Shown: piece after piece, positions 1 through 48,950 of the stretch | Numbering within the stretch: the first letter of the stretch is position 1 | How the letters are laid out: each line of letters opens with the position of its first letter | Source of the DNA: an uncultured Clostridia bacterium | GTDB taxonomy: Bacteria; Bacillota; Clostridia; TANB77; CAG-508 | Assembly (NCBI GenBank): GCA_944392425.1 | Contig: CALXWM010000002.1 | Coordinates: forward strand, 3,346-67,345 | Reading direction: 5' to 3' | Length of the DNA: 64,000 bases | Made by a program: the position numbers and the translations under genes | The notes under the pieces: model-generated | Seen by the model: only the letters and a program-made list of their open reading frames with translations | Told to the model about the DNA's origin: nothing | Databases searched by the model: none

Positions 1-174
1 AATTCAAAATTAAAGTTAACAGAAAAGGGAAAACAGTTATATACTGAAATTATCGAAAATAATGATATTATGGTACTTGAAAAAAACGAATTAAATATTA
101 TAAAGGATAAAATAAATGATGATGTTATAAAAAAAATATTAGAAAAATGGGGGGCATCTAATGTTAAAAATTAA
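1..174 (+). CDS. 3' end of a gene truncated by the window edge (57 codons visible, ...KILEKWGASNVKN*)
   Basis: Frame 1 is open from base 1 to TAA at 172-174. It overlaps the ATG at 161 of the next gene by 14 nt, which suggests translational coupling. Confidence 0.4.
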   Translation, partial: NSKLKLTEKGKQLYTEIIENNDIMVLEKNELNIIKDKINDDVIKKILEKWGASNVKN

Positions 175-2206
175 TCGAATTAAATGTATTATCATTACTG
201 CAAATGATGGAAATTTTGGATATGATTATAAATTTGAAACAGGCCTGAATTTAATTTCTAGTACAGAAAATACTAAAGGAAAAAGTTCAATTCTTGAGGC
301 TATTTATTACTGCTTAGGGGTTGAAGAATTATTAGGAGCAGTTGATGAAAAAGCACTGACCCCAGTATATAAGACAGCAATTGATTATAAGGAAAAGAAA
401 AATATAATACCATTGAAAACTATGTTTTATTTAGAGATTACAAATGAAAGAGGAGATATTGTTACTATTAATAGGAATATAGAAAGGTTAGTTAGTAACA
501 AATTAATTAATGTTTACTCTTGTAATTTAGATAATGCTACGAATGGTGAAAGAGATTTTCAAGAAATGTTTGTTAATACAGCAGGAGGAGCTACTTCTGA
601 TAAGGGGTTTCATAAGTTTTTAGAGAAATTTATAGGCTGGAGACTTCCAGTAGTTCCATCTTTTGAAGAGAAAGACAGAAAATTATATTTGCAAACTCTA
701 TTTTCTGCAATGTTTATTGAGCAAAAAAGAGGGTGGTCTAATTTACTGGCTACTATTCCAAATTATGGAATTAAAGACTCGAAAACTAAGGTTATTGAAT
801 ATATTTTAAATTTAGATACAATAGAAAACGAAAGACTTAAAATAGAATGTAAAATTGAAGAATCAATAATAAAACAAAAATGGAAAAAAGTCATAGAGAA
901 TATAACTGACTTATTAAGTTCAGAAAATTGTGTAATAAGAAATTTATTTGAAAATCCCAGAATAATAGATGAGAATAATTTAAAGCAAATGACTCTTTTT
1001 AAAAGATATAATGAAGAAGAAAAAGAGTTAAAAAAATATATTGAAGAAAGAAATAAAAAAGCTAAAAGTTTGTCTCAACAAAGTTTAAAGGTTGGAAAAA
1101 ATATTGAAGAATTAGAAGAAAATTTAAAGAAATTACAAAATGAACTTCAGGAGAAATTTGAAAGAAGACAACAAAAGAAAAGAGAATCAATATTAGAAGA
1201 GAAAGCAATAGATAAATTGATTGAAAGTTTAGAAATTATAAATAAGGATTTAAATTCTAACAAAGATATCAATAAACTAAAAGGATTAGGAGCTTTGAAA
1301 ACTAGTTGCTTATCAAAAGACATCTGTCCTACATGTAAACAAAATATCAAAGATTATTTATTAGAACAAAATTTAATTAATAGAATTATGAATGTAGATG
1401 AACAAATTCAACACCTTTCAGATCAAAAAAAGATGGTGGAATTCTCATTAAGGTCACACAAAAGTAATCTTTTAAATATTCAAGAAGATTTAAAAATTCT
1501 GGAAACTGAAATTACTAAAAAAACAAAAGATATTAGACGAATAGTTAATGACATATATTCAACAGATGAGTGCCTTTCAACTTCAATAGTATATGAAAAA
1601 TTGAATATAGAAAATGAAGTTGAAAGATTATTAGAAATGGAAAAGAGAATAGAATACTATAAAAAAGAATTATTAACAGTTTCTAATGATTGGGCAAGTT
1701 ATTTAGAAAAAAAATCAAAATTACCTAAAGGAATTTTTTCAGAGGATGATTTAAAAAAAATAAATGAATTGAAAAATGAGTTTATAAAGAAAATAGAAAA
1801 TTATAATTATTCAAGTAATCAAAACATATATGATATAGAGATTTCAAAGGACAAGTTAATGCCAACATTGAATGGGTTTGATTTGATAAAGGATGGATCT
1901 GGAAGTGATTTAATAAGAATAATTTGGGGATTTACATTATCATTATTAGCTGTTTCAAATAAAAATGATGGAAATCATTCAAAGCTAGTAATAATTGATG
2001 AGCCCGCACAACAAAGCATTGAAAATAAGGATTTATATAGCTTTATTGATGACTTAATTAATAATTTTGATAATTCGCAAATCATTATGGCAATCACATT
2101 AAATAATTTAGAATTACAAAATTATGTAAGAAATAAAGATAATTTAAATATAGTGTTGATAGAAGATAAAGCTGTAAAACCGTTGGATAAGCTTGAACAA
2201 GAGTGA
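161..2206 (+). CDS. SMC/Rad50-like ABC ATPase with central coiled coil and CxxC hook (LmuB/DUF3732-like architecture)
   Basis: N-terminal Walker A-like STENTKGKSS followed by ILEAIYYCLG. Long K/E/L-rich heptad-like middle with CPTC at aa 389-392. C-terminal GSGSD signature-like motif and Walker B LVIIDEPAQQ. Confidence 0.7.
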   Translation: MLKINRIKCIIITANDGNFGYDYKFETGLNLISSTENTKGKSSILEAIYYCLGVEELLGAVDEKALTPVYKTAIDYKEKKNIIPLKTMFYLEITNERGDIVTINRNIERLVSNKLINVYSCNLDNATNGERDFQEMFVNTAGGATSDKGFHKFLEKFIGWRLPVVPSFEEKDRKLYLQTLFSAMFIEQKRGWSNLLATIPNYGIKDSKTKVIEYILNLDTIENERLKIECKIEESIIKQKWKKVIENITDLLSSENCVIRNLFENPRIIDENNLKQMTLFKRYNEEEKELKKYIEERNKKAKSLSQQSLKVGKNIEELEENLKKLQNELQEKFERRQQKKRESILEEKAIDKLIESLEIINKDLNSNKDINKLKGLGALKTSCLSKDICPTCKQNIKDYLLEQNLINRIMNVDEQIQHLSDQKKMVEFSLRSHKSNLLNIQEDLKILETEITKKTKDIRRIVNDIYSTDECLSTSIVYEKLNIENEVERLLEMEKRIEYYKKELLTVSNDWASYLEKKSKLPKGIFSEDDLKKINELKNEFIKKIENYNYSSNQNIYDIEISKDKLMPTLNGFDLIKDGSGSDLIRIIWGFTLSLLAVSNKNDGNHSKLVIIDEPAQQSIENKDLYSFIDDLINNFDNSQIIMAITLNNLELQNYVRNKDNLNIVLIEDKAVKPLDKLEQE

Positions 2207-2540: not shown

Positions 2541-3209
2541 ATGAGTGTAGAAAGTATAGTAAATATAATAACATCTATTATAATGTGTGTGGCAACGGTA
2601 GTATCGGTTGTAATAGCGGTAATTGCAATAAAACAGACAAAAATTCAAATGGAGTTAAGTAATAAAAATAATTTATTTTCAAATAGAGTTAAAGGATACC
2701 TTATAATAAAAGGTTTATTAAATCTATATAACCAAAATAAAAAAGATATTGAAGAAGAAAAAGAAGATAAAATATACTTTAAAGTTGACCCTTTATTTTA
2801 TGGATTGATAAACAATTCATATCTTGAGAATATGGGCACTGTAATAGAAGAACCTTTACATGATCCTGAGCATAAAAATTTTTTGACATCACTAGAAAAA
2901 TTAAAGAATCAAGCTGAAAAAATGAGATTTTTATTTGAAAATAAAATTGGTATTTATGCAAAAAACTTTATATTAAAATATGCAGATGTATTAATGAAGT
3001 TATATCAATACAAAATATTAATTATAAAAATGAGAGAATATTCAACAACATATCCTATGGTAGATATAAAAAAAGCTGCGGAAGATATGAATGAAATAGA
3101 AAATAGAAAAGAATTATTTAAAGCTTTTGAGAAACTAAGTGAAGAATACAAATTATTAAATAATTATGATTTCGAAACAAAAATAATAGAGGAAATAAAG
3201 TTGAACTAA
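2541..3209 (+). CDS. Membrane-anchored helical protein of unknown function (single N-terminal TM helix)
   Basis: RBS AGGAGA precedes the ATG. Hydrophobic segment IVNIITSIIMCVATVVSVVIAVIAI, then about 190 aa of K/E-rich helical-looking sequence. It sits 41 nt upstream of the next gene. Confidence 0.6.
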   Translation: MSVESIVNIITSIIMCVATVVSVVIAVIAIKQTKIQMELSNKNNLFSNRVKGYLIIKGLLNLYNQNKKDIEEEKEDKIYFKVDPLFYGLINNSYLENMGTVIEEPLHDPEHKNFLTSLEKLKNQAEKMRFLFENKIGIYAKNFILKYADVLMKLYQYKILIIKMREYSTTYPMVDIKKAAEDMNEIENRKELFKAFEKLSEEYKLLNNYDFETKIIEEIKLN

Positions 3210-3250: not shown

Positions 3251-5461
3251 ATGAATATTAAGTTTAGGAAGCTAGTCGTATCAAATCGATTTCACACTTC
3301 ATTTGAAGAATGGAATACTAATAATGAAATAGAATTTTCAAATTCTGGTTTCGCAGATATATATGCACCTAATGGCGTAGGAAAATCAAGTTTAGCGAAA
3401 GCCTTAAAAAATGAGATAAAATCGGAATATGAATATGAATATAACGGTAATATTTATACAGAAAAATCAAACGACAATCCTATAATTGTTATTGATGATT
3501 TTTTCTTTAGAAATATTGCATCACGAGAAAATGAAAAAATATCTGATTATATTTTAGGGTCTCAAATAAATAAGGAATTAGAATTAAAAGAAAAAATTGA
3601 TAATATAATAGAAGGAGTTAAGGGCAGTGTAATAGCATATTTAAAGGATGTGTATGGAATTAAAAGCAAAAACAGCAATTTGTGTAACTTGGTGGATGAT
3701 GAGAATTTTAAAAAATTTATTAGTGCACTAGCTAATAATAGAGATAAGGGAAAAGATTATGATGCTGAAAAAATATTAAAAGCAGTTAATGGGTTTAATG
3801 TTAATGATAATATGACATTAGAAGAAGATAAATTTTATTATGTAAAAACTAATTTAGAAGCGAATAATTCAATAATAAAGGATATTATAGAATTTGATAC
3901 AAGTAATTTTAATAAAATAGAACAGTTTAAAAAGATAGATATAGATAGTGATGCTATAAAGATATTGGAAAAGCACAAGGGAATTACTACATGTATTTTT
4001 GAGGAGAGTCACAAGTTGCCAAATGGTATAAAAGAACAGTTAGAAAAAAATAGAGAAACGATAGTAAGCCAACTAACACCAAAACAAAAAGAAATTACTA
4101 AAAAAATTTTAGAATTAAATAATAATGATCCATTTAATATAAAAGAAATATTTAATAGTGCTTTTGAAAAAGGAAATATAGAAGGAATTGAAAGTTTAAT
4201 TAAAGAATTTAAGTCATATGTTCTAAGTATAAAAAATGAAATATGTAAATATATTTTTAAATTACTGAAAGAAAGCCAGCTAAACGAATTATATTTCGAA
4301 TTAAAAGAATTAATTGATAAAAAAGTTGAGTTAACGGAAGAAGACGAAATTCTCTTAAAAAATATAATTGAGAATTGCTTAAATAAAGAAGTTAAATTCG
4401 AAAGAGATAATAATAAAAATATAATATTTAAATTAAATGATACAGATGTAATAGGTAAAAGTCGACAAGAACTTCCTTTATCGACAGGAGAACAAAATTT
4501 TATATCATTATATTTTGAATTGCTAGCAGCAAAAAATTCAACTAAAGAGATAGTTATAATTGATGATCCTATATCTAGCTTTGATTCAATATATAAAAAC
4601 AAAATAGTTTATGCAATTATAAAAGTTTTAGAAAAAAAGAATACGATTATATTAACCCATAATATTAATACTATAAAATTAATGCAACACCAGTATAAGA
4701 ATTGCTTTAACTTATACCTATTAAATAATGAAAATGACGAAGAAAATGGATTTATTAAAGTAGAGAGAAGATTAAATAATTCAGAAAATTATAGAGATTT
4801 AGATTTGATGCTTGAAATAAAAAATGTAATTCAATTATTTAAAGAAAATTCATTTTTAAATGATGTTAAAAATAAAGAACAATTTATATTATCATTAATA
4901 CCTTTTATGAGGAGTTATTTTAATTTAATACCACAAAAGGAAGAGCATTATAAAAAATTATGCAAGTTAATGCATGGTTATGAAAGTCAAATTATTGATA
5001 TCAATAATGAATATCAAGAATGCTTTGGACAAAATGTAATTGGAAATAACTATAATGTTTCAATAAATGATATATTGCAAACTGAAGTTTCAACTGAAAT
5101 AGTAGATAGAGAAAAATATCCAGTATTAAATAGAGCTTTATATCACTCTTTAAATTATTTAAAAATAAGATTAATGGTTGAAAACACACTATACAATACA
5201 GATTTAAATAAAATAGACAAGAATAAAAATTATCAATTACATCAAATAATAAGTATATATTTAAAGGATAATTATATTTTAAAAGCAATTTTAATCTCAA
5301 AGAAAACATTATTAAATGAATTTAATCATTTTGAATACGATATGTGTTTATTTATGCCTTCTTTAGATATATCTAATAGTAAGTTAAAAGAAGAAAGAGA
5401 GAGCATAATAAGAATATGTAATGAGATACGAACAAAAGGGATAAGTAATATAGATTCATAA
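3251..5461 (+). CDS. PrrC/RloA-like (AAA_13-type) ABC ATPase with an unassigned C-terminal domain of about 250 aa
   Basis: Walker A YAPNGVGKSSLAKAL. Helical insert of about 370 aa. Signature LSTGEQNFISLYFEL, Walker B IVIIDDPISSFD and H-loop IILTHN. RBS AAGGAG. Confidence 0.75.
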   Translation: MNIKFRKLVVSNRFHTSFEEWNTNNEIEFSNSGFADIYAPNGVGKSSLAKALKNEIKSEYEYEYNGNIYTEKSNDNPIIVIDDFFFRNIASRENEKISDYILGSQINKELELKEKIDNIIEGVKGSVIAYLKDVYGIKSKNSNLCNLVDDENFKKFISALANNRDKGKDYDAEKILKAVNGFNVNDNMTLEEDKFYYVKTNLEANNSIIKDIIEFDTSNFNKIEQFKKIDIDSDAIKILEKHKGITTCIFEESHKLPNGIKEQLEKNRETIVSQLTPKQKEITKKILELNNNDPFNIKEIFNSAFEKGNIEGIESLIKEFKSYVLSIKNEICKYIFKLLKESQLNELYFELKELIDKKVELTEEDEILLKNIIENCLNKEVKFERDNNKNIIFKLNDTDVIGKSRQELPLSTGEQNFISLYFELLAAKNSTKEIVIIDDPISSFDSIYKNKIVYAIIKVLEKKNTIILTHNINTIKLMQHQYKNCFNLYLLNNENDEENGFIKVERRLNNSENYRDLDLMLEIKNVIQLFKENSFLNDVKNKEQFILSLIPFMRSYFNLIPQKEEHYKKLCKLMHGYESQIIDINNEYQECFGQNVIGNNYNVSINDILQTEVSTEIVDREKYPVLNRALYHSLNYLKIRLMVENTLYNTDLNKIDKNKNYQLHQIISIYLKDNYILKAILISKKTLLNEFNHFEYDMCLFMPSLDISNSKLKEERESIIRICNEIRTKGISNIDS

Positions 5462-8238: not shown

Positions 8239-9501
8239 TCACGCCAAATACTGTTCTTCCTCACTTTGCCAATCAATATATTTTAATATTTCCTTATTAT
8301 CAACATCTAAATGAATAAAATCCAAAATAGTATCATTAGGAAAACATGATTCACAATAAAATGGCATAATAAAGTGAGGAACAATGCCAATTCTATCTGT
8401 AGCAAGAACTCTGCTTAGTAATTCTTTTGCATCACTTAGAAATACAGGAATATCTGCTTTTTTCAAGGCAAGGAAAAATTTAATAGTTTCAATTGATCTA
8501 TTATAAGATTTTCCAGCTACTCTAAAGTAATATCCATATTCATCATGCATGACATATAATGAAACATGTGTCGAATTGCCTCCTCTGCAGACTTCCCAAG
8601 GGTGACCACCAAATCGAGTTTGGTCATTATACCATCTATCAAATTCTTCAAAGGAATTTTCATCAATATCTTTTAAACCATCATCTCTTCCATCAGCATT
8701 TTCATAATACAATTCTTTAGGTGTTAAAGTTTCACAATTCGGATAATTATTTGCCTTATAACCTAAATAACAATAATAATAAAACTTCCCCGATGTCATT
8801 TTAGATATTCTACCAATCAATTTACTTGCTCTATATTTTACTTTCATATCTTTTTGCATATTCTCTTGCAAGGATACGAAATATTTTAATTCATCTATTT
8901 CTGACTGTGAAAAGTTGCTAAAATAATCTTCCTTGGCATCAGGATATACTTTCCAAAAATCACTTCTTTTTATTGTACCATACCTATTTTCAAATGGTAA
9001 ATTGTTTTTAACATAATCATTGTAAAATTCTTTTTCCATCTTATCTAAACAATACTTAACAGAATGAATTATTGTCTCAATAAGATAACTTATATTCATC
9101 TCGAATCCAGTAGTTTCAATATTAGGAGATTGAGCAATTAGCTTGCTATTTAAAAAAATTGCTCTAAATTCTTTATCGTCCTTTTGCATAAAAGATATTG
9201 TGCTTAATTTGTACCAGTAAATATCATTTGGATAATCTCTTTTCCACATTGTTTCAAACTCTTTATAATTTGAAACAATTTCATCCTGAACGAATTCTTC
9301 ATAATTACCATAGTCAGAAATATTTCCTCTAGGTATAGTAATCCAAAGCTCATGCAAATTATCCTCTCCACAAGGTTTAATTTTATCTAAAATTTCATAC
9401 ATAGAATTTATTAAATCCCATGTATTTTTATCAAATCGCATTTTACTATGATTTAAGTAGTTAATGTAGTTGTCTATTTGTGGTGCTGAAAGTAAATTCA
9501 A
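8239..9501 (-). CDS. Hypothetical protein (420 aa), no recognisable domain
   Basis: Long ORF with RBS GGAGAGG upstream on the minus strand. Confidence 0.6.
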   Translation of the reverse strand: MNLLSAPQIDNYINYLNHSKMRFDKNTWDLINSMYEILDKIKPCGEDNLHELWITIPRGNISDYGNYEEFVQDEIVSNYKEFETMWKRDYPNDIYWYKLSTISFMQKDDKEFRAIFLNSKLIAQSPNIETTGFEMNISYLIETIIHSVKYCLDKMEKEFYNDYVKNNLPFENRYGTIKRSDFWKVYPDAKEDYFSNFSQSEIDELKYFVSLQENMQKDMKVKYRASKLIGRISKMTSGKFYYYCYLGYKANNYPNCETLTPKELYYENADGRDDGLKDIDENSFEEFDRWYNDQTRFGGHPWEVCRGGNSTHVSLYVMHDEYGYYFRVAGKSYNRSIETIKFFLALKKADIPVFLSDAKELLSRVLATDRIGIVPHFIMPFYCESCFPNDTILDFIHLDVDNKEILKYIDWQSEEEQYLA

Positions 9502-10639: not shown

Positions 10640-11692
10640 ATGAATGTTGATATAGAAATGGAACTCTTTGATATTTTTACTGAAGGATACAAAGATAAAC
10701 TAGACGAAAAAAAAGATTTGAAGGATTATTTAGAGGAAAAAACAAAAGATGAGCTAATTGGAATATATGGCAGATATTATCTTGCAGGAAATGTAAATGA
10801 TATTGATAAACTTAAAGAGATAAAAAGAGAATCAAAGGAAAATGTTATTAATAAAATAATCAATCTAATAGACACCCAATTAATATCAGTTTTTCAATTT
10901 ATGGATGACGATAGAATGGAGCAAATTAAAAATATAGCTAATGATGATGGCTTTTCGACATTTGAATTAGGTGGGATTAATAATTTTTCGATAGACATTA
11001 TGATGAAATTACATTTATTAGGATTAATTTATGCAAAAAAAGAAAACGAAAAGACAATTATTCATATGCCTAATTTTGTTAAAAATAAAATAAGAAATAT
11101 TGAAGGAAACTTTTATTTAGATTATTATGATGATTTACTTATATACTTAGAAGGTATGGTTTATACTTATGGAGTAATTGACATGAAAAAAGCGTATGAG
11201 TATATCAGTAGTGTAATTCCAATTAATTTTAATAAATTTAATTCTATAGTTCTGTTTACAGCATATATGGAATTAGATAAGATATATTTTAAAAGTCCGG
11301 AAATGGTGTTGGCAAATATAGAATTAACCGAAGACCAAATAAGTAAACTAGCAAATAAGAAAATAAAACTAGAAAAATATGATTTAAAATTTTTTAAATC
11401 TATGGCTGACGGAACTTATATGAAAAATCTTAAAGAATATAAATCTTTTAGAAACTATTTAAAAAACAATTTTAGATATGATTTAAATGATTATGAAAAT
11501 CTAAGGGGAGAGCTTATTCAATCGTATTCAGATATTGCTCAAGTAGATGAAAGAAAAGCATTACAAGTCTTAAAAATGATGATTTCTGATAATTTTGATA
11601 TAGATGATGATGAAGAGCAGATAATGATAGGCTACATAAATAATATTAGAGAGAAAATGCCTATTTGGAAAAAAGGTGGAAAAATAAATTAA
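10640..11692 (+). CDS. Hypothetical protein (350 aa)
   Basis: Long ORF. The 5' end is uncertain: an in-frame ATG at 10607 beside a strong AAAGGAGG is cut off by TAG at 10625-10627. Confidence 0.55.
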   Translation: MNVDIEMELFDIFTEGYKDKLDEKKDLKDYLEEKTKDELIGIYGRYYLAGNVNDIDKLKEIKRESKENVINKIINLIDTQLISVFQFMDDDRMEQIKNIANDDGFSTFELGGINNFSIDIMMKLHLLGLIYAKKENEKTIIHMPNFVKNKIRNIEGNFYLDYYDDLLIYLEGMVYTYGVIDMKKAYEYISSVIPINFNKFNSIVLFTAYMELDKIYFKSPEMVLANIELTEDQISKLANKKIKLEKYDLKFFKSMADGTYMKNLKEYKSFRNYLKNNFRYDLNDYENLRGELIQSYSDIAQVDERKALQVLKMMISDNFDIDDDEEQIMIGYINNIREKMPIWKKGGKIN

Positions 11693-13961: not shown

Positions 13962-14033
13962 ATGGTTAAAGTTTTATTTGTATGTTTAGGAAATATATGT
14001 AGATCACCAATGGCTGAATTTATTATTGTATAG
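13962..14033 (+). pseudogene. 5' remnant of a low-molecular-weight protein-tyrosine phosphatase/ArsC-family gene (MVKVLFVCLGNICRSPMAEFIIV*)
   Basis: The canonical N-terminal CX5R(S) P-loop VCLGNICRSP is present. The frame stops after 23 codons, exactly where the 144-nt repeat begins. Confidence 0.55.
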
Positions 14034-14166
14034 GAAAAATCAAGTTTTTCCTATACAATAAAAGCATTGCACACAATTTTACATTTGTAAAATTGGCGCA
14101 CGAACAAAGACGCGGACGATGTAAATTTAAAAGTAGAACAAAGTTAAAGGAGCCCGCTTTTGTTCT
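14023..14166 (+). repeat. 144-nt structured repeat, copy A
   Basis: Identical to 48807-48950 except for 2 substitutions. Contains a 17-bp hairpin TTATTGTATAGGAAAAA/TTTTTCCTATACAATAA, the palindrome AATTTTACATTTGTAAAATT, and AGAACAAA...TTTGTTCT. Confidence 0.85.
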
Positions 14167-14307
14167 TTAAGATTGAGAAGAATATATACAAAGATTTGAA
14201 AAATAAATGGTGGATAATTTAAAATAGAATAAAACTTTATAATTTGGTAAAAATTATGCAAGCATATAAATCTAGTTAAGTTTTATATAAAAGAGGAGAA
14301 TTAAAAA

Positions 14308-15221: not shown

Positions 15222-15360
15222 GACTTTGTAGAGTTATATCACTGGTATATAAAAAATATTACAATATTAGATGTTATATGTTTTGAATTTTTAAAAGTAT
15301 AATTTATCCACAAACCGGGAACAATATGTGTAAAAACATATTCGGGGAGTGGAATTTTTT

Positions 15361-18300
15361 ATGTATAAAATATTAAACACAAAAGAAATTGTACTAGATA
15401 AAAAATTACTAAAAGAATATTTAGCAAAATTTGCAGCAGATAGTATTATAAAAGAAAAATCGAATCTTGACACTTATCCAATTCCTAGGGTTTTGGATAA
15501 TTTTGAGTATATATCTTTAATATATACTTTATTAAATCAGCACGTTAAACTTGGAATACCAATACATCCAGCAGGAGAATGGCTTTTAGATAATTTTTAT
15601 TTAATAGAAAATACAGTAAAAATTCTACAAAAGAGTTTATCAAAAAATAAATATGAAAAATTTCCTAGAATTGCGAATGGAGTGGACGCAGGTTTTGCAA
15701 GAATTTTTGTGTTATGCAATGAAATTGTTATGAATACAGATGGTAGAATTGATGAAAGAGAGATAACGGAGTACATTCAGTCATATCAAACACAGAAAAA
15801 TCTTTATATGAATGAAATATGGAATATAGGTATTTTTTTGCAGATTGCAATTATAGAAAAAATTAGAGGTATTTGTGAAAAAATATTTATTTCCCAAATG
15901 CAAAAGTTCAAAGTTGAAAATATAGTTCAAAGAATTTTGGAAAATAAAGATGTTAAAAAGCTTAAATTAGATGTAGACTTATATTCTTTTATTGAATATA
16001 TGGCATATAGATTAAAAACTTATGGAAAAGAAGCGGCTCCATTTTTAGCTATTTTAGAGGAACAGGTTCAAAGAAATGGAATGACTTTAAGTGATGTTAC
16101 AAATAAAGAGCATTTTGACATTGCTTTGAAAAGAGTTTCTATGCAAAATTCCATTCTTAGTATAAAAGCGATTTCGAGGATGGATATTTTGTCTATTTTT
16201 GAAAATACAAGTATTGTTGAAAAAATGTTGAGTACAGATGAAGAATATAAAAAAATGGATTACCAGAGTAAAGCAAATTACAGAAATGCTATTGAAGAAA
16301 TTTCAAAAAAGACAAAACTTTCGGAAGTTTATATTACTCAGAAATGTCTTGAATTGTGTGGCTTAAAGACGGATGACACTGAAAAAATCTCGAATATAGA
16401 TGAAAGCAAGATAAAACAAATCAAAAATACTGTAAAAAATCAAAAGCAATCACATGTAGGTTATTATTTAGTTGCAGAAGGTAAATCGCAGTTACTTAGT
16501 AAATTATTAAATAAAAAGGTAAAAACTATTTCTGATAGTACAAAGTCAAAATTATATGTAGCAGGAGTATATATTCTAACAATTGCAATCACTATATTAC
16601 TATGCACAAGGTCTTGGCTTATGGGAATTTTATGTTTTATACCTATTCAAAATGTTGTAACTAAATTTTTGCAATATGTTTTAAGCAAAATCGTAAAACC
16701 AAAAGTACTCCCTAAATTGGACTTTCAAGATGAAGGTATTCCTAAAGAATATGCTACTATGTGCGTAATACCAGCACTTCTAAAAGAAGATAAGGATGTT
16801 ACAGAGTTTATGCACAAACTTGAAGTATACTACTTAGCTAACAAAACTGATAATTTATATTTTACACTTCTTGGGGATTGTACAAGTGAGAAGAGTGAGA
16901 GAAAAAGCACAGATGAAAAAATTGCTGAAACTGGTAAAAAATGTGTAGAAAAATTGAATAGTAAATATGGTAATGTATTTAATTTTATATATAGAAAAAG
17001 AGAATGGTCTAGTAGTGAAAGATGTTTTATGGGTTGGGAAAGGAAAAGAGGTATTTTAACACAATTAAATGAGTACCTAATAACTGGAAATAATCCATTT
17101 TGGATAAATACTTGTAAAGATTTACCTAAAATTAAATATGTTATTACAATTGATAGTGATACAAGTTTATCTTTAAATCAAGCAGAAAAACTAGTTGGAA
17201 CAATTGCACACGTACTAAATAAGCCAGAGATTAATAAAATTACCAATACAGTAGTTTCAGGGCACGCACTTATACAACCTAGAATTGGTGTAGGAATTAA
17301 AGATGAAAGAAAAACAGTGTTTTCTAGACTTTTTGCAGGTTCTGGAGGAACGGACCTTTATGCAAATGCAATTTCAGATGTTTACCAAGATAATTTTGAT
17401 GAAGGAATATATACTGGCAAAGGAATATATGATGTAGAAGTTTTTTATGATGTGCTTAAAGATACAATCCCAGAAAATAGTGTATTAAGTCATGACTTGT
17501 TAGAAGGAAGTTACTTAAGATGTGGACTTGCTTCAGATGTACTTTTGATGGACGGATATCCTTCAAACTACATTTCATACAGAAAGAGAAAACACAGATG
17601 GATAAGAGGAGATGTACAAATTTTACCATGGTTAAATTCTACATTAAATACTTTATCTAAGTATAAAATTTTAGATAATTTAGCAAGAGACCTAGAGGAC
17701 TTTTTTGAATTGCTACTAATAATAATTTGCTTTGTTTTAGCATGGCTAAATAAAGCAAATTCAGGACTATTTTTGACTTTAGCAATTATATTTTTAGCTT
17801 TTTCTAGCATACTTGAACTTTTGGATATTTTTATGAATTACAAAACAGAAGAGCAAAAATTAATTTCAAAAGAGTTTACAAAAATTCAAGGAAGTATATA
17901 TAGATTTTTTATCAAGCTTTCTATTTTGCCAGATATGGCATATTTGGAAATTAATGCATTTGTAAAAAGCATATATAGAATGAAAATATCTCACAATTTT
18001 ATGTTGGAATGGACTACTTCAAATGATGCGGAAAAAAATAGTCAAAAATCTGTAAAGGGATATTATTTATCAATGCTTCCAAATGTTATTTTAGGAATTT
18101 TACTAGCAGTTTTAGCAGGAGGATATTTGATACTTAATTTTGGCACATATTTTTCTAACAATGAAATAGCAGATGGTCTGAGACTAAATGCAGCTCTTTT
18201 GGGTCAAGGATTGGAATTAGGTTTTAGTATTATTTTTTTGAGTTTAGGTATAATTTGGCTAATAACACCATTAATCATGTACAAGTTAAGCATAAAAAAC

Positions 18301-21300
18301 GAAAAAACTTTATCACAGAAGATATCTCAAAATGACAAAGAATTTTTATTAGACAAAGCAAGAAAAACTTGGCAGTATTTCAAGGATAATATGGTAAATA
18401 ATTTGCCATCAGATAATTATCAGCCAGACAGAAAAATAAAAAGATCTGAAAATACATCTCCAACAAACATTGGCTTGGCTTTAATGTCTATGGTTTCTGC
18501 ACATGATTTGAAATTCGAAAGTTTAGAAGATACAATTTCAATGATTGAAAAAACTATAACGACTATTGAAAACTTACCAAAGTGGAATGGACATTTATAT
18601 AATTGGTACAACATTTACACATTAGAAGCGGTTAAGCCAGCATTAATTTCGTCAGTAGATAGCGGAAACTTGGTAGGGTATTTATATACTGTTAAGCAGT
18701 TTTTGATTGAGATAATAAATAAAAAGCAAAATAGCTCCTCTATAATTAGTGAAAAAGAAAACACACCAAATATTAATGAAAAAGAAAATGAAAAGATAGA
18801 AAATATTAACAAAAAAGAAATAAAATCTTTAATTAAGAAAATAGACACATTAATTTACCAAACAGATTTTAGTAAATTATATGATTACAAAATAGGACTA
18901 TTTTCAATAGGATATAACCTAGAAACAAACACTCTAATAAATTCATATTATGATTTACTTGCATCTGAAGCAAGACAAACCAGCATTATAGCAATTGCAA
19001 AAAGAGATGTGCCAAGTAAACATTGGAATAATTGTTCAAGGCTTTTAACAACTATGGGGCTATATAAAGGATTAATTTCATGGGGCGGAACAGCTTTTGA
19101 ATACCTAATGCCAACAGTAAATATACCATCATATGAAACCTCCTTGCTAGATGAATCTTGTAGATTTTCTATATTAAGCCAAAGAAAATATGCAAAAAAA
19201 CTAGGAATACCTTGGGGCATTTCAGAATCAGCATATAATACTAAAGATTTTAAAGGCAATTATCAGTATAAAACCTTTGGAGTACCATGGCTTGGATTAA
19301 AAAGAGATTTAGATGATGAAGTGGTAATAAGTCCTTATGCTACTGCTATAGCACTAACATTTTATCCAAATGAATCAATAGAAAATTTAAAAACAATAGA
19401 TAAAAATTTAGGTACAGGAAAATATGGATTTTATGAATCTATAGATTATAAGCCTAAAAAAGCAGTAAATAAAACATTTATGGCACATCATCAAGGCTTA
19501 ATTCTAACATCAATAAATAACTTGCTAAATGACAACATATTTCAAAAAAGATTTATGAAAAATGCAGAAATAGAAGGTGTAGAAATTTTGTTAGAAGAAA
19601 AAATGCCAAAAGACATGATTACAACTAAGGAGAGAAAAGAAAAAGTGGAAAAAATCAAATATAAAGATTATGAAGAATATACAGAAAGAACTTCTGGAAT
19701 AAATGTGCTCGCAAATGAAAAATATTCTATTGTAATGAAAGACGACGGAAGCAGTTATAACAAATTTGGAAATGATATTATAAGCAATAATATTCATATT
19801 TATATTAAAGATGTAAATTCTAAGAAGGTTTATGATACTGTATTTGATGCCAAAAATGATAACACCAATAAGCAAGCAGATCAAATAAACAATCCAAATT
19901 ATACAAATAATCAGGTCATATTTACAACATCAGAAGACAAAGTAATTATTCAAGATGGTAATTTAATGATAACAATGAAAGTCACAATTGCTCCAAATTT
20001 ACCAATAGAAATTAGAAAAATAAGTATTAAAAATACAGGAATGTCACCTTTAACACTAGAAGTAACAAGCTATATGGACATATTGCTTGCAGATTTTAAA
20101 GGATTTTATGCTCACCCAACTTTTAATAAAATGTTTATAGATTATGAGAAACTTGATGAGGGAATATTATTAACTAGAAGACGTAGAGAGGAAAAGAGAC
20201 AAAAAACTTTTATAGCAACAAATTTAGTTTATGATGAAGGTGATTTAGAATTTGAAATAGATAAAGAAAAATTTGTAGAAAGAGGAAATTTCGAGACAGA
20301 AAATAAAGCTTTAATTAGCAATTACGAAGATAAAATAAATAAAGATTTTAAAAATATGAATTCAAATATTCCTGAAACAATACAAAATTCAATTGGGCTA
20401 TCTAAAAAAATAGGTCAAACAATTAATCCTATTGTAGCAATGCGAAGACTTGTAAATATAAATCCTGATGAAGTAAAAGATGTATATCTAATAAACTCGG
20501 CGGGAGATAGCCGAGAAGAAGCGGTAAATAATTTACAAGAATATACTAAATCAGAAAGATTAAATACAATTTTTGATTTATCAAAAAATCACAGTTTTGC
20601 AGAGGCAAGATTTTTGGATGTTAAAGGAAAAGATATAGATATTTATCAAAAAATAATTAAAGAATTACTATTCCCAGACCATAAAGAATACGCTATTAGT
20701 TTAGACTTATCTAATGAAAAGCTATGGAAATATGGTATTTCAGGAGATAGTCCAATATTATTAGTCAAAGTAAGAGATAATAATGATACCTATTTATTAA
20801 ATGAAATATCAAAAGTAAAAGAATATTTAGATATGAAAAATATTGTAGCAGATATTGTTGTTTTGTCCAAAAATGAAATTACAAGTAAATTCAAAACATT
20901 AATTAACATTCCAACTGAAGACAAAAGAGTGTTAGAAGCAAGAGCAAATTTAATACTAGACTCAAAGTTAGGCTCTATATCTATTCAAATGAAAAATAAA
21001 AATAGTAATGATACTAAAAATATTGGAGCAAAATATTCAAGTAATTTAATGGAGAAAAATAATGAACAATTAAAACCAAAATCTAAAAAAGACTTTAAAG
21101 GACTAATATTAAAACATGAAGACTCAGAAAAAAATGTCGAATTTGATACAAGTAAATTATTATATTTTAATGGATATGGAGGATTTTCACAAGATGGTAA
21201 TGAGTATCACATAATAGTAAACAAAAATAAAAAAACACCTGCTGTATGGTGCAATATAATGGCAAATGATAAGTTTGGAACAGTAGTTACAGAAGGTTTG

Positions 21301-23628
21301 GGTGGTTACACTTGGTACAAAAATTGCAAAATGAATAGAATAACAGAGTTTTCAAATGATGCTTATTTAGACAAACCATCAGAAGTAATTATAATGCAGG
21401 AAATGAATGAAAAAGATGGAGAAGTAGTTAGCTCAAATCAAATATCTATGGACGATAAAAAGCATGCAAGCCAGATAATAAATAATTCTTTTGGAATTAG
21501 CCCAAATGTTTTGCCTGACACAGGAAACTACCACATAACTTATGGGTTTGGATATTCAAAATACCAACACATATATAAAGATATAGAAGAAGAACTAACT
21601 GTATTTGTTCCAATTAAAGATAGTTTAAAAATTAGCAAATTAAGCTTGAAGAACACAAGTTTAAATAAGAAAAAAATAAAAATATTTTATGATGTAGATT
21701 TTGTGCTTGGAGAAAGAAAAGATAAATTTATAAATTATTTGTATAAAGAAAATTATAATTTGTTATTTGTAAAAAACAATGTAAATCCAAAAACTTACGC
21801 ATATATAACAAGTAATGAAAAAATAATATATAACGGCAATTTAGTAGAAATAAATGTTGAAATAGACTCTTTAGAAACTAAAGAAGTAACAATAATATTA
21901 GGCACAGAAGAAACAGAAACTGCTTGTATGGAAAATGCAAGTAAATATTTACAAAAAGATAGCAAAGCTTTAGAAGAAGTAAAAAAATATTGGATGGATA
22001 AAGTCAAAATTGTGGAAGCAAAAACGCCATCAAAATCGTTTAACATTATGCAAAATGGTTGGACAATATATCAAACTATGGCATCAAGAAAGCTTGCAAA
22101 AACAGGATTTTATCAATCAGGTGGAGCAATTGGATATAGAGATCAATTGCAAGATGCAATGAACTTGAAATATATAGATAGTGATATATTAAAAAATCAA
22201 ATATTATTGCATGCAAAACATCAATTTAAAGAAGGAGATGTACTTCATTGGTGGCATAACTTTAATAATTTAGGAATTAGAGCAAGATATAGTGATGACC
22301 TTTTGTGGTTACCATATGCAGTCGTCACATATATAGATTTTACTGGAGATTTTAGAATACTAAATGAAGAAACAGAGTATTTAGAGGGAAGAACGCTGAA
22401 AGAAAATGAGCATGATTTTATGTTTAATTTTAAAAATGGAAAGGAAAAAGAAAGCATATACCATCATTGCATGAGAGCCATAAATAGATCTTTAAATTTT
22501 GAATATTTCCCAAAAATTCAAGGTGGTGACTGGAATGATGGTATGAACAAAGTAGGAATAAAAGGAAAAGGAGAAAGCATTTGGTTAGGTTTTTTCTTAT
22601 ACTCCATTTTAATAAAATTTGCTGAATACTCAAAATATATAACAAGATATGCAAATAAAGAAACAACTATAGCAATGCTTGCAGAAAAGAAAAATGTGGA
22701 TGTGAAAAATATAGATACAGACGAAAAATCTGATGAATATGAAAGACTAATGGAAATTGCAGAAAAATTAAGAAAGAATCTAAATACAGTAGGTTGGGAT
22801 GGCAGATGGTATAAAAGAGCAACCACAGATGATGAAAAAGTTCTTGGAAGTGCGGTAAATAAGGAATGTAAGATAGATAGCTTATCTCAAAGTTGGTCTG
22901 TTATATCAAATGCAGGAGATAATGATAAAAAATATATAGCAATGGAAAATATGGAAAAATATTTAATAGATAAAGAAAACAATATAGTAAAATTACTAAC
23001 ACCGCCTTTTGAAAACGAAGAATTTAAACCAGGATATATTGCATCATATGCACCAGGAATGAGAGAAAATGGTGGACAATATACACATGCAGCTATATGG
23101 GGTGCAATTGCAGAAACGATTTTGAATAAACCAGAAGAAGCAATGGAAATATATAAAATGATAAATCCAATAGAGCATAGCAAAACAGAAGAACAAATGG
23201 TTAAATATAAAGTTGAACCATATGTTGTTGAAGCGGATATATATGGTGAAAATGAATTTGCAGGCAGAGGTGGCTGGACATGGTATACAGGTTCTAGTGG
23301 ATGGCTATTTACACTTCAAACTGAATATATATTAGGTTTAAAGATTTATCATGGAGAATTAAAAATAAAGCCGTGTGTTCCTAAAGATTGGAATGAATTT
23401 GAAGTTAATCTTAAATGGAAAAATGCAAATTATCATATAAAGTATGAGAGAAAGAATTCAGGCATAAACAATAAAGATGAAAAACAAGAAAAAAATAATA
23501 ATCTTGATGAAAACAAACAAATATTAGATTTAAATAATGATAATGTTCAAATGTATTTAAATGGGGAAAAAGTAGATGAAATAAAACTAAAAGATGAAGG
23601 AGAGTTTGAGGTAAAGGTGGAATTTTAG
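15361..23628 (+). CDS. Cyclic beta-1,2-glucan synthase-like giant protein (GT84 glycosyltransferase + TM regions + alpha-barrel cyclisation-like domain + GH94 phosphorylase-like domain)
   Basis: GT motifs ITIDSDT, GKGIYDV, LSHDLLEG and HRWIRGD. The region SPTNIGLAL...WNGHLYNWY. C-terminal GH94-like GGDWNDGMN, ENGGQYTHAA and GWTWYTGSSGW. ATG 15361 is preferred over GTG 15349 (RBS GGGGAG 11 nt upstream). Confidence 0.85.
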   Translation: MYKILNTKEIVLDKKLLKEYLAKFAADSIIKEKSNLDTYPIPRVLDNFEYISLIYTLLNQHVKLGIPIHPAGEWLLDNFYLIENTVKILQKSLSKNKYEKFPRIANGVDAGFARIFVLCNEIVMNTDGRIDEREITEYIQSYQTQKNLYMNEIWNIGIFLQIAIIEKIRGICEKIFISQMQKFKVENIVQRILENKDVKKLKLDVDLYSFIEYMAYRLKTYGKEAAPFLAILEEQVQRNGMTLSDVTNKEHFDIALKRVSMQNSILSIKAISRMDILSIFENTSIVEKMLSTDEEYKKMDYQSKANYRNAIEEISKKTKLSEVYITQKCLELCGLKTDDTEKISNIDESKIKQIKNTVKNQKQSHVGYYLVAEGKSQLLSKLLNKKVKTISDSTKSKLYVAGVYILTIAITILLCTRSWLMGILCFIPIQNVVTKFLQYVLSKIVKPKVLPKLDFQDEGIPKEYATMCVIPALLKEDKDVTEFMHKLEVYYLANKTDNLYFTLLGDCTSEKSERKSTDEKIAETGKKCVEKLNSKYGNVFNFIYRKREWSSSERCFMGWERKRGILTQLNEYLITGNNPFWINTCKDLPKIKYVITIDSDTSLSLNQAEKLVGTIAHVLNKPEINKITNTVVSGHALIQPRIGVGIKDERKTVFSRLFAGSGGTDLYANAISDVYQDNFDEGIYTGKGIYDVEVFYDVLKDTIPENSVLSHDLLEGSYLRCGLASDVLLMDGYPSNYISYRKRKHRWIRGDVQILPWLNSTLNTLSKYKILDNLARDLEDFFELLLIIICFVLAWLNKANSGLFLTLAIIFLAFSSILELLDIFMNYKTEEQKLISKEFTKIQGSIYRFFIKLSILPDMAYLEINAFVKSIYRMKISHNFMLEWTTSNDAEKNSQKSVKGYYLSMLPNVILGILLAVLAGGYLILNFGTYFSNNEIADGLRLNAALLGQGLELGFSIIFLSLGIIWLITPLIMYKLSIKNEKTLSQKISQNDKEFLLDKARKTWQYFKDNMVNNLPSDNYQPDRKIKRSENTSPTNIGLALMSMVSAHDLKFESLEDTISMIEKTITTIENLPKWNGHLYNWYNIYTLEAVKPALISSVDSGNLVGYLYTVKQFLIEIINKKQNSSSIISEKENTPNINEKENEKIENINKKEIKSLIKKIDTLIYQTDFSKLYDYKIGLFSIGYNLETNTLINSYYDLLASEARQTSIIAIAKRDVPSKHWNNCSRLLTTMGLYKGLISWGGTAFEYLMPTVNIPSYETSLLDESCRFSILSQRKYAKKLGIPWGISESAYNTKDFKGNYQYKTFGVPWLGLKRDLDDEVVISPYATAIALTFYPNESIENLKTIDKNLGTGKYGFYESIDYKPKKAVNKTFMAHHQGLILTSINNLLNDNIFQKRFMKNAEIEGVEILLEEKMPKDMITTKERKEKVEKIKYKDYEEYTERTSGINVLANEKYSIVMKDDGSSYNKFGNDIISNNIHIYIKDVNSKKVYDTVFDAKNDNTNKQADQINNPNYTNNQVIFTTSEDKVIIQDGNLMITMKVTIAPNLPIEIRKISIKNTGMSPLTLEVTSYMDILLADFKGFYAHPTFNKMFIDYEKLDEGILLTRRRREEKRQKTFIATNLVYDEGDLEFEIDKEKFVERGNFETENKALISNYEDKINKDFKNMNSNIPETIQNSIGLSKKIGQTINPIVAMRRLVNINPDEVKDVYLINSAGDSREEAVNNLQEYTKSERLNTIFDLSKNHSFAEARFLDVKGKDIDIYQKIIKELLFPDHKEYAISLDLSNEKLWKYGISGDSPILLVKVRDNNDTYLLNEISKVKEYLDMKNIVADIVVLSKNEITSKFKTLINIPTEDKRVLEARANLILDSKLGSISIQMKNKNSNDTKNIGAKYSSNLMEKNNEQLKPKSKKDFKGLILKHEDSEKNVEFDTSKLLYFNGYGGFSQDGNEYHIIVNKNKKTPAVWCNIMANDKFGTVVTEGLGGYTWYKNCKMNRITEFSNDAYLDKPSEVIIMQEMNEKDGEVVSSNQISMDDKKHASQIINNSFGISPNVLPDTGNYHITYGFGYSKYQHIYKDIEEELTVFVPIKDSLKISKLSLKNTSLNKKKIKIFYDVDFVLGERKDKFINYLYKENYNLLFVKNNVNPKTYAYITSNEKIIYNGNLVEINVEIDSLETKEVTIILGTEETETACMENASKYLQKDSKALEEVKKYWMDKVKIVEAKTPSKSFNIMQNGWTIYQTMASRKLAKTGFYQSGGAIGYRDQLQDAMNLKYIDSDILKNQILLHAKHQFKEGDVLHWWHNFNNLGIRARYSDDLLWLPYAVVTYIDFTGDFRILNEETEYLEGRTLKENEHDFMFNFKNGKEKESIYHHCMRAINRSLNFEYFPKIQGGDWNDGMNKVGIKGKGESIWLGFFLYSILIKFAEYSKYITRYANKETTIAMLAEKKNVDVKNIDTDEKSDEYERLMEIAEKLRKNLNTVGWDGRWYKRATTDDEKVLGSAVNKECKIDSLSQSWSVISNAGDNDKKYIAMENMEKYLIDKENNIVKLLTPPFENEEFKPGYIASYAPGMRENGGQYTHAAIWGAIAETILNKPEEAMEIYKMINPIEHSKTEEQMVKYKVEPYVVEADIYGENEFAGRGGWTWYTGSSGWLFTLQTEYILGLKIYHGELKIKPCVPKDWNEFEVNLKWKNANYHIKYERKNSGINNKDEKQEKNNNLDENKQILDLNNDNVQMYLNGEKVDEIKLKDEGEFEVKVEF

Positions 23629-23629
23629 T

Positions 23630-23668
23630 ATGTCAATTGGGACGTGTCAATGGGGCGTCCCCATTGAC
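23630..23668. repeat. TGTCAAT-GGGG/CCCC-ATTGACA hairpin (plus an adjacent half-site) directly after the cgs-like stop
   Basis: Perfect 11-bp stem TGTCAATGGGG/CCCCATTGACA with a 3-nt loop at 23644-23668, preceded by TGTCAATTGGGACG. Confidence 0.7.
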
Positions 23669-23800
23669 ACAATTGAAAGGTAATTTTAAAAAAATATTTC
23701 AACTAGCGATTGACAAATATAAAAATTAAATGTATAAAATTATTATAGGAAAAAGAAAGGTAGATAGCAAATATGAAAATCGCTGAAAGCCTTGAGGCTG

Positions 23801-40306: not shown

Positions 40307-40335
40307 TTGAAACACCTATGAAAATGTGCTATAAT
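40307..40335 (+). promoter_or_regulatory. Sigma-A promoter with extended -10
   Basis: TTGAAA, 17-nt spacer, TGcTATAAT. It lies inside the 5' extension given in the ORF track, which supports the ATG 40369 start. Confidence 0.55.
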
Positions 40336-40368
40336 AAACTTATGATTAAAAATAAAAGGAGGATATCT

Positions 40369-47856: not shown

Positions 47857-48339
47857 ATGATAACTGCAAAAGAAGTTGCAAAGTATTTTTTATCTAAAGA
47901 TAATGATAAAAAAATGTTTAACACAAATTTAGTTGAATTTCATAATAGAAAAGCATATGAAGGCAATATCAGATTAAACAAGTATTTATATTTTGCACAA
48001 ACAGTATATCTAGCAAAATATGGCAAGTTATTGTTTGAAGATGATTTTGTAGCATATGACAATGGACCAGTTATAAAAGAAATAGTTGAAAATTATCCAT
48101 CAATGCAAGCAAACAGAGAAGAAATAATCTTACCAAAAGAAATAGAACAATTTTTAGACAAAATATATGAATCACTTGCAGATGCAAGTTGTGAAGAATT
48201 GATAGAAATAACACATGAAGATACAGCTTGGAAAGAAGTAAGTGATAAGACATATTATGCTCCAGTAATAAATTTAGAGAAGTATAAGGCTAAATTTGAA
48301 AAACAATATAAAGGATTAATAAAAGTAATGGAGATATAA
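47857..48339 (+). CDS. Panacea-domain (DUF4065, SocA/PanA-like) antitoxin candidate
   Basis: The pattern NKYLYFAQTVYLAKYGKLLFEDDFVAYDNGPVIKEIVENY matches the DUF4065 core as I recall it. RBS AAGGAGG. The stop overlaps the next start (TAATG). Confidence 0.65.
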   Translation: MITAKEVAKYFLSKDNDKKMFNTNLVEFHNRKAYEGNIRLNKYLYFAQTVYLAKYGKLLFEDDFVAYDNGPVIKEIVENYPSMQANREEIILPKEIEQFLDKIYESLADASCEELIEITHEDTAWKEVSDKTYYAPVINLEKYKAKFEKQYKGLIKVMEI

Positions 48340-48767
48340 TGGATTTAGAAGTAGGACAAGTATTATGGTTAAAGGTAAGATATAAAACTAATTTGATTGC
48401 AGATAAAGTTCATCCAATGTTAGTTGCTGTAATAGACATTGATGAAGATAAGATTGAAGTTATAGCGATTGATAAAGCAAAGGACAAAATCTCACAACTA
48501 TATAGCGAAGCAAATTATTTTTTAGATAGTGATAATCCAAAAGAAAAAGTGATATATGTTGATAGTTATGCTCAATTAAATAATACATTAACCATTGAGT
48601 ATTTTCCGGAACTAACAAAATATAGGAAGACGACAGCAAAATTGTCATATAATAAATTAACAGATTTGATAAATGATTATAGAATATACCATAAAAATAA
48701 TTTTATACCGGATGAAAGAAAAGTTCATATGACAAAAGAAGAAATATTACAATTAAATGAAAATTAA
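48339..48767 (+). CDS. Cognate toxin candidate (142 aa), weak PemK/MazF-like N-terminal pattern
   Basis: Translationally coupled to the Panacea gene. VGQVLWLKVRY...HPMLVAVI resembles the G-x-I/V-W...RP-x-LV motif of the PemK/MazF fold, but this is suggestive only. Confidence 0.45.
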   Translation: MDLEVGQVLWLKVRYKTNLIADKVHPMLVAVIDIDEDKIEVIAIDKAKDKISQLYSEANYFLDSDNPKEKVIYVDSYAQLNNTLTIEYFPELTKYRKTTAKLSYNKLTDLINDYRIYHKNNFIPDERKVHMTKEEILQLNEN

Positions 48768-48806
48768 CTAAATGAAAATTTATAAACGTTGAGAAATCAA
48801 CGTTTT

Positions 48807-48950
48807 TTATTGTATAGGAAAAATCAAGTTTTTCCTATACAATAAAAGCATTGCACACAATTTTACATTTGTAAAATTGGCGCACGAACAAAGACGCGGG
48901 CGATGTAAATTTAAAAGTAGAACAAAGTTAGAGGAGCCCGCTTTTGTTCT
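48807..48950 (+). repeat. 144-nt structured repeat, copy B
   Basis: Differs from 14023-14166 at only 2 positions (A/G in cgcggAcgatg, A/G in gttaAagg). Starts right after the toxin-gene terminator (48784-48808). Confidence 0.85.

Follow-up and report, generated by a model that had tools for sequence, protein, structure and literature searches.

A probable family of non-autonomous, hairpin-targeting mobile repeats in gut Clostridia

A truncated phosphatase gene and two copies of a structured repeat

The window analysed here is a 64-kb stretch of DNA (64,000 nucleotides) from an uncultured Clostridia bacterium. At 13962..14033 on the plus strand it carries a truncated LMW-PTP gene of 23 codons plus a TAG stop (14031-14033), which encodes MVKVLFVCLGNICRSPMAEFIIV and contains the motif CLGNICRS, a CX5R(S/T) P-loop. 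A first-pass annotation, made by reading the letters alone, had taken this frame for a phosphatase N-terminus, and comparison with relatives confirms it: syntenic 158-aa orthologues with PF01451 have identical first 22 residues. These relatives (L030 and L032-L034) encode MVKVLFVCLGNICRSPMAEFIF(R/K)DLVKKEG... and are annotated as PF01451 LMWPc. Homology to the intact orthologues covers 13962-14024 (21 codons), and the TT at 14026-27 is also common to the window and the relatives; the left break in homology lies at ~14024-14027, within codon 22 (...GAA TTT ATT).

In the relatives the gene order is Lactamase_B, LMWPc (158 aa), Pyr_redox_2+Rhodanese (592-635 aa), DNA_alkylation and GH94, the second gene of the intact locus being CoA-disulfide-reductase/rhodanese-like and ~600 aa long. 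More distant relatives lack the phosphatase gene pair altogether. In the window, homology resumes at ~14247, 20 nt before the stop of the Pyr_redox gene, and the last ~20 nt of this deleted Pyr_redox/rhodanese gene together with the intergenic spacer (14247..14307, plus strand) mark the right edge of a ~2.25-kb deletion. The DNA-alkylation-repair protein encoded downstream has relatives at 81-93% identity. A 2,759-aa open reading frame (15349-23628) adjoins the locus here and in the relatives too; it carries Glycoamylase and GH94 supersandwich and catalytic domains and resembles a cyclic beta-1,2-glucan synthase or phosphorylase.

Some 2.25 kb of the relatives' locus is replaced here by 221 nt, consisting of a structured element and ~80 nt of other sequence. 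As had been noticed at first sight, a 144-nt unit at 14023-14166 recurs on the same strand at 48807-48950, and pairwise alignment gives two differences, at 14116 and 14147 (A versus G in both cases), between copies whose flanking DNA is unrelated. The 17-bp hairpin (14023-14039 / 14045-14061), the palindrome and the GC-rich core described for this unit are all found in the sequence. A 39-nt core occurs exactly twice in the window, with 0 occurrences expected from 100 shuffles, and the folding is far more stable than that of shuffled controls (z = -6.1 and -7.4 for the two strands). While the repeat itself stands, 14023 and 14166 do not serve as the limits of the element, since they include bases of a T-rich target. 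Drawn from empty sites and other copies, the element proper is 14025-14165, and the TT at 14023-24, perhaps with the T at 14166, comes from the target.

So delimited, copy A (14025..14165, plus strand) is 141 nt long and scores 100.7 bits (E = 2.4e-19) with a covariance model of the family. On the plus strand it comprises hairpin 1 (14025..14059; ATTGTATAGGAAAAA / TCAAG / TTTTTCCTATACAAT, with flanking T/A runs that lengthen the stem), the P1 hairpin (14068..14100; TGCACACAATTTT...AAAATTGGCGCA), which is nearly invariant family-wide and forms the conserved core together with the linker C-GAACAA, and P2 (14102..14165). The last of these has a base helix GAACAAAG / CTTTTGTTC, an upper stem GCGGAC / GCCCGC with A14116 mismatched and a 34-nt variable loop, and is terminator-like on either strand. 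Copy A is slightly degenerate, because the A at 14116 breaks a conserved G-C pair. The 3' TTTTGTTC had been thought to pair with an internal AGAACAAAG; its conserved partner is the upstream GAACAAAG (14102-14109), and AGAACAAAG is confined to this subtype.

Copy B (48809..48949, plus strand; 102.2 bits, E = 1.1e-19) has every P2 pair intact, with hairpin 1 at 48809-48843, P1 at 48852-48884 and P2 at 48886-48949. It starts directly 3' of the T-run of an intrinsic terminator (48784..48808, plus strand, or more narrowly 48784-48805; a 9-bp stem plus T-run). This terminator ends a two-gene cassette that lies directly 3' of tuf (47857-48767) and encodes a SocA/Panacea-domain antitoxin (160 aa) and an overlapping 142-aa open reading frame, which has no Pfam match and is the probable toxin. 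Some metagenomes show zero depth immediately to the right of copy B, which indicates that this junction varies among strains.

The two copies are direct repeats, 34.8 kb apart, both upstream of plus-strand genes. Direct repeats could be the att sites of an integrated island, and a structured element ahead of genes could be a riboswitch or leader; we regard both ideas as extremely improbable. The Pfam matches in the interval include a giant GH94 protein, a two-component system, a signal peptidase, holB, a 2-oxoacid:ferredoxin oxidoreductase (PFOR) operon, an SNF2 helicase, a GidA-family gene, rpsL-rpsG-fusA-tuf and the Panacea-domain antitoxin pair. Housekeeping genes of this kind contradict prophage or ICE att sites, and copies elsewhere are solitary or tandem. 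As for a leader, the genes downstream of the copies are unrelated, about one third are convergent, and they lie from 5 to >600 nt away, with no tie to particular downstream genes. No transposase gene was found anywhere in the 64-kb window. Four large open reading frames of 350-721 aa in the window (161-2206, 8239-9501 on the minus strand, 10640-11692 and 40318-42483) have no Pfam match at E <= 0.001.

How, then, did the phosphatase gene come to be truncated? The proposal that the element or a related rearrangement disrupted it holds in so far as the breakpoint falls exactly at the element. It was not a simple interruption: ~2.25 kb including the whole of the next gene is gone, and to the right of the element lies ~80 nt of foreign sequence. 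This filler (14166..14246, plus strand) is single copy by depth in four metagenomes, has no second copy in any locus fetched and no significant similarity to the deleted 2.3 kb of the relatives; a sigma-70-like site within it (14196-14225) precedes the DNA-alkylation-repair gene. A remainder of the phosphatase, which the first-pass annotation had not recognised, probably does follow: ~12 nt directly 3' of the element, TTTAAGATTGAG, resemble the continuation of the gene, TTTA[A/G]AGATTTGG (p about 0.005). This resemblance suggests a plain insertion at GAATTTATT^TTTA, with a separate deletion afterwards. Copy A would then have struck a T-run in codon 22, and the remainder of the gene and its neighbour would have been lost later. 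Near-identical strains all have the same arrangement, their short contigs ending inside the element, and none of the relatives compared has the 23-codon frame without the element.

A structured repeat family in gut Clostridia

An exact 21-mer of the GC-rich core was found at 22 loci in about 7 gut Clostridia MAGs, with 3-8 copies in each. A degenerate pattern for P1 and the linker returned 44 metagenome loci, of which ~32 are true copies and the others GC-rich chance matches. The covariance model, R1, built from 17 sequences, gave 66 matches over the loci from gut Clostridia MAGs and metagenomes; in the window it finds the two copies only (100-102 bits), and the next match has 16.5 bits. The hosts are very low-GC uncultured Clostridia from chicken, deer and human gut. 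In metagenomes, DNA depth over the element exceeds that of its flanks by 10-30x at P1 and by 3-5x at the subtype-specific P2, and from the P2 ratio we estimate about 4-5 copies of this subtype in each genome. The element breaks assemblies, which explains contig ends in MAGs.

From 5' to 3', a copy consists of a variable AT-rich hairpin 1, P1 with its linker GGCGCACGAACAA, and the long helix P2, which ends in TTGTTC and beyond which conservation stops abruptly. Hairpin 1 differs in sequence between subfamilies, with its pairing kept, and is missing or truncated in about ten loci. P1 and the linker form a nearly invariant core of ~45 nt (TGCACAC...GGCGCAC GAACAA). The base helix of P2 is conserved in sequence, GAACAA(A/T)x / x(T/A)TTGTTC, and its upper stem takes more than ten unrelated sequences that are always complementary, e.g. 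GCGGGC/GCCCGC, GTGGCGCAT/ATGCGCCAC, GGAAAGCC/GGCTTTCC, GTGACAT/ATGTCAC, GAGGCATG/CATGCCTC and TGAAAAAT/ATTTTTCA. P2 has the stem and TTTTGTTC that a terminator would have; its loop is 16-36 nt in most copies, and a terminator consensus scan does not call it. Some copies carry optional small hairpins of the UUCG type.

This structure is supported by the pattern of substitutions. In the family alignment, 96% of cells are paired. Double-change cells number 137 in this alignment, which is fitted to the model, versus 42.5 in shuffles (0 of 500 shuffles reach 137), and the covariation score is 0.241 versus 0.01-0.04 when partners are slid by 1-3 columns; single-sequence folds yield the same helices as the model alignment. 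Wobbles in P1 and P2, counted on the plus strand in the same fitted alignment, show a modest strand preference (57 G.T versus 13 A.C), and those in hairpin 1 show none (23 versus 20). Copies inside one genome are near-identical including their loops, and it is genomes that are separated by compensatory changes.

The family is, by all the searches we made, undescribed. Rfam 15 gave 0 matches at the gathering threshold, either in the window or in 10 loci that represent all subtypes, and no family around the element even at E <= 10, while the T-box, 6S and tRNA genes that served as positive controls were detected. BLAST against 72,556 plasmid and 50,697 phage records found no match to the element. 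A literature search turned up no Clostridium repeat of this kind.

Insertion sites and empty alleles

At least 21 of ~33 solo or first copies start 0-9 nt 3' of a stable stem-loop, usually right after its T-run. The stem-loops include intrinsic terminators, a T-box attenuator, a 6S RNA terminator and a hairpin upstream of mob. Left flanks are T-rich (..TTAT, ..TTTT, ..CTAT, ..GTTC) without a fixed word. Of 41 distinct loci, about 35 have their upstream gene on the same strand as the element; for downstream genes the share is only about two thirds. With terminator T-runs as the usual site, copies pile up at the 3' ends of genes, on the sense strand. Such targeting could come in part from selection, if insertions behind terminators alone survive. 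That said, the base-level adjacency to stem-loops argues for mechanistic targeting.

In one MAG, copies of two unit types form head-to-tail arrays, hairpin 1 of one unit directly adjoining the ...TTGTTC of the unit before it, and the joint in a metatranscriptome contig that 'goes back 140' is the same arrangement. Since P2 and TTTTGTTC are themselves target-like, new copies may land behind old ones and so build these arrays. No recurrent protein family neighbours the copies, from which we take the element to be non-autonomous; no tnpA, tnpB, iscB, HUH gene or autonomous partner was found within ~2.5 kb of some 45 loci.

Locus L008 has a 6S RNA gene (2774-2959, minus strand; Rfam 104 bits), and a 5'-truncated copy begins at the last bases of its terminator T-run, with a second, full copy next to it. 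In L015 (about 4150-4180) the last ~17 nt of the element (AAAGATGTCCGCTTTT) stand alone between a terminator T-run and a hairpin-less copy, and 8-9-nt fragments of the 3' end precede copies in L001, L004 and L020. These short fragments are either extreme 5' truncations or chance.

Filled and empty alleles give evidence for mobility. Six contigs have a variant of the element 20 nt ahead of a Mob_Pre gene (PF01076, E = 8.6e-13), within a Tn4451-like integrative mobilisable element (IME) that carries a gene for a large serine recombinase as well. Without the insertion (empty allele) the site is AAGTCCTAT^GCTACGAAG (longer, AAGTCCTAT^GCTACGAAGAAATTTC), and with it (filled allele) AAGTCCTAT[134 nt]GATGAAG, i.e. 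AAGTCCTAT[AAAAAATAC...CACTTTTGTTC]GATGAAGAAATTTC; the Mob of the empty-allele IME is 84-86% identical to that of the filled IME. The host element is itself a very abundant gut mobilisable element (L082-L097, e.g. L082 407-4207; 7,926 Mob homologues at E <= 1e-15). It resembles Tn4451/Tn4453, with a large serine recombinase, a Mob_Pre relaxase, a 100-aa open reading frame and a variable cargo of HD-domain protein, KilA-N, Bro-N and TnpV. A scan of viral contigs recovered just this mobilisable element with Mob_Pre, and tblastn of the Mob protein against plasmids found relatives at <=42% identity only.

Its place in front of a relaxase gene raises the question of whether a MobV (Mob_Pre) relaxase has the element as its origin of transfer (RSA/oriT), in which case the chromosomal copies would be orphan oriTs. 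In MobV systems the oriT lies ahead of mob and consists of a hairpin with a nick site behind it (PMC5863519). The empty alleles contradict this identity and leave it very improbable: the same mobilisable element is far commoner without the repeat, one such Mob being present on 108 contigs, where the places shown for that protein are without the element. The IME moreover retains its own upstream hairpin, and the repeat is a clean 134-nt insertion behind it.

A second pair was found in the pheS leader of one MAG, where the element sits between the T-box terminator and the pheS start codon. Contigs that encode the same PheS (99% identical to that of the MAG) are either filled (...GCCCGCTTTTGTTC^TTTATGAATTAG) or empty (...GGTTCGTTTTTGTTA^TTTATGAATTAG). 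In the filled allele in L099 the left flank is unlike the T-box, so this pair is clean on the right side only. Neither pair has a target duplication or terminal inverted repeats. Codon 22 of the phosphatase gene is a third independent case of insertion. The mobility proposed in the first-pass annotation is thus borne out, both by many near-identical copies dispersed at unrelated loci and by two independent pairs of filled and empty alleles.

Two further candidate pairs were rejected. Between L007 and L010, after pheT, divergence was too great. An apparent empty site at 62.5 kb of the window, compared with L021, proved to be a different dispersed repeat or terminator-like palindrome (window 62535-62598; L021 about 4900-4970, minus strand). 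This second palindrome family is built on GGGGACG...CGTCCCC, e.g. TTTACTTTGGGGACGGAGCAAAACGTAAAATTTTACAAAAAGGACCGTCCCCAACGTAAAAAG, shows 95% identity between its copy in the window and one at an unrelated locus in another MAG, and has related palindromes at 23640-23690, 31150-31200 and 59760-59800 of the window. The pheST region has other repeats of its own. Between pheS and pheT lies what looks like a classical MITE, about 170-200 nt long and bounded by the terminal inverted repeats CAATATATATTCTTCCGC...GCTCCAGAATATATATTG (L010 about 3700-3950, minus strand; L099 1272-1505; L105 2236-2400), which is absent in some strains, the spacer in L098 being 59 nt. Downstream of pheT in L007 (about 4380-4520, minus strand), tandem ~32-nt units TGTCAAT(A/G)GGGACGTTCTTGTTTGACACACTC lie directly upstream of a copy of the element.

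Could the family instead be a multi-copy functional RNA module, i.e. a 3'-UTR, a terminator or stabiliser, or an sRNA gene family, retained for a role in the cell and only secondarily spread? Its structure is conserved with covariation, G.U wobbles favour the sense strand, copies sit at gene 3' ends in sense, P2 with its A-tract and U-tract looks like a terminator, and the element is found in metatranscriptome contigs. We nevertheless consider this unlikely. The near-identity of copies within a genome, loops included, and their difference between genomes is a pattern of recent amplification, and filled and empty alleles both occur. Promoter scans found no conserved or convincing promoter in the element. 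In assembled metatranscriptome contigs its depth excess is 5-10x, not above the 10-30x DNA excess at P1, so the depth does not point to a strongly expressed sRNA. The element has also inserted ahead of the essential pheST genes and of mob, which implies that P2 is not an efficient terminator in context. A functional RNA and mobility are not exclusive.

Proposed mechanism and relation to known elements

The reading we prefer, and think probable, is an undescribed family of ~140-nt non-autonomous, hairpin-targeting mobile repeats of gut Clostridia, one copy of which hit the phosphatase gene. A copy inserts in one orientation, 0-9 nt 3' of an existing stem-loop and usually at a terminator T-run, with neither terminal inverted repeats nor a target duplication. 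The invariant P1-linker module may be the recognition and cleavage site of a trans-acting enzyme. We favour a strand-specific, hairpin-reading mechanism acting on single-stranded nucleic acid. The candidate enzyme would be a nuclease of the HUH type, working by rolling circle or by peel-and-paste; a reverse transcriptase that uses terminated element RNA seems less likely. The 5'-truncated or hairpin-1-less copies at about 10 loci are not predicted by two-ended cut-and-paste; an RNA or rolling-circle route, or secondary palindrome deletions, would fit them.

A bolder idea, to which we give a rather low probability, is that the mechanism which mobilises the family has yet to be described in bacterial non-autonomous elements. 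Such a mechanism might take two forms. The first would be a SINE-like retroposon whose RNA stops at the P2 terminator of the element, is copied by a reverse transcriptase acting in trans and becomes attached to terminator DNA or to other terminated transcripts at their 3' ends. The second would be a Helitron/IS91-like rolling-circle parasite, with a nuclease for which 'stem-loop + T-run' serves as origin as well as target. Both routes would account for the constant 3' end, the variable or truncated 5' end and the head-to-tail arrays, as well as for sense orientation behind terminators, 6S RNA and a T-box attenuator, and for the foreign 80 nt at copy A.

The first-pass annotation had tentatively linked the hairpins to IS200/IS605-type ends, and a PATE-like derivative, an orphan end or an omega-RNA remnant of such an element (TnpA-Y1 / TnpB) would indeed lack terminal inverted repeats and target duplications. 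Strand-specific insertion, subterminal hairpins and a sharp conserved 3' end with a variable 5' part point the same way, and so does orientation on the lagging-strand template (GC skew is positive along the entire window). Even so, the link is unsupported and we judge it distinctly unlikely. The element has three mutually unrelated hairpins, whereas the left and right ends of known members have one TnpA-binding hairpin in common. Its target appears to be a stem-loop plus a T-rich run rather than a fixed 4-5-nt word. Full-length partners with tnpA, tnpB or iscB were found neither in the neighbourhoods searched nor in the window, the Rfam searches gave no omega-RNA match, and the phage and plasmid records gave 0 matches.

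The element belongs to the small structured non-autonomous repeats, and its genomic behaviour appears closest to that of REP/BIME-type repeats. REP/BIME repeats (REPINs, in Proteobacteria) and the bcr-type repeats of the Bacillus cereus group are short extragenic non-coding hairpin repeats with many near-identical copies. They are enriched behind genes, form tandem mosaics, conserve structure more than sequence and depend on an enzyme encoded elsewhere. Like REP/BIME, the element is extragenic, palindromic, clustered behind genes and often tandem. Unlike them, it has three distinct hairpins and an invariant 45-nt core in place of one 20-40-nt palindrome, no GTAG-type 5' motif and no RAYT gene identified near its copies, and it occurs in uncultured low-GC Clostridia with base-level adjacency to terminator T-runs.

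Like MITEs such as Correia, RUP and bcr1, the element is small and dispersed, is non-coding, and can disrupt genes or change transcripts. Classical MITEs, though, are defined by terminal inverted repeats and target-site duplications; the ends of the element, ATTGTATAGG... and ...CTTTTGTTC, are not mutually inverted, and its filled and empty pairs show no duplication. These absences and its strand specificity are also features of IS91/ISCR, Helitron-type elements and IS200/IS605 PATEs. Further likenesses to the rolling-circle and PATE elements are a subterminal hairpin on the 3' side, a few nt short of a sharp end, AT- or T-rich insertion points, head-to-tail arrays, 5'-variable copies and possible capture of flanks (the 80-nt filler). 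The element differs from them in apparently targeting a stem-loop and not a fixed tetranucleotide and in its dissimilar hairpins; no HUH gene was found near its copies, and to our knowledge its ends are unlike those of any described member.

In target choice and sense orientation the element agrees with the group IIC (class C) introns; no other mobile elements are known to insert, in sense orientation, behind terminator stem-loops or attC hairpins (PMC4424553). It differs from these introns in being ~140 nt long, without ribozyme domains I-VI and without an open reading frame, and no match to Intron_gpII or group II was found even at E <= 10.

In summary, the element adds a structure-conserved repeat family for uncultured gut Clostridia and offers a useful marker for MAG assembly. 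It may affect host gene expression, by disruption of the phosphatase gene with the adjacent 2.25-kb deletion and, elsewhere, by insertion ahead of a relaxase gene, at the 6S RNA 3' end and in the gap that separates a T-box riboswitch from pheS. Insertion at the foot of stem-loops and terminators has so far been known solely for group IIC introns. As the repeat has no ribozyme, transposase, terminal inverted repeat or target-site duplication, the enzyme that moves it could reveal a new mode of reading hairpins in DNA or RNA.
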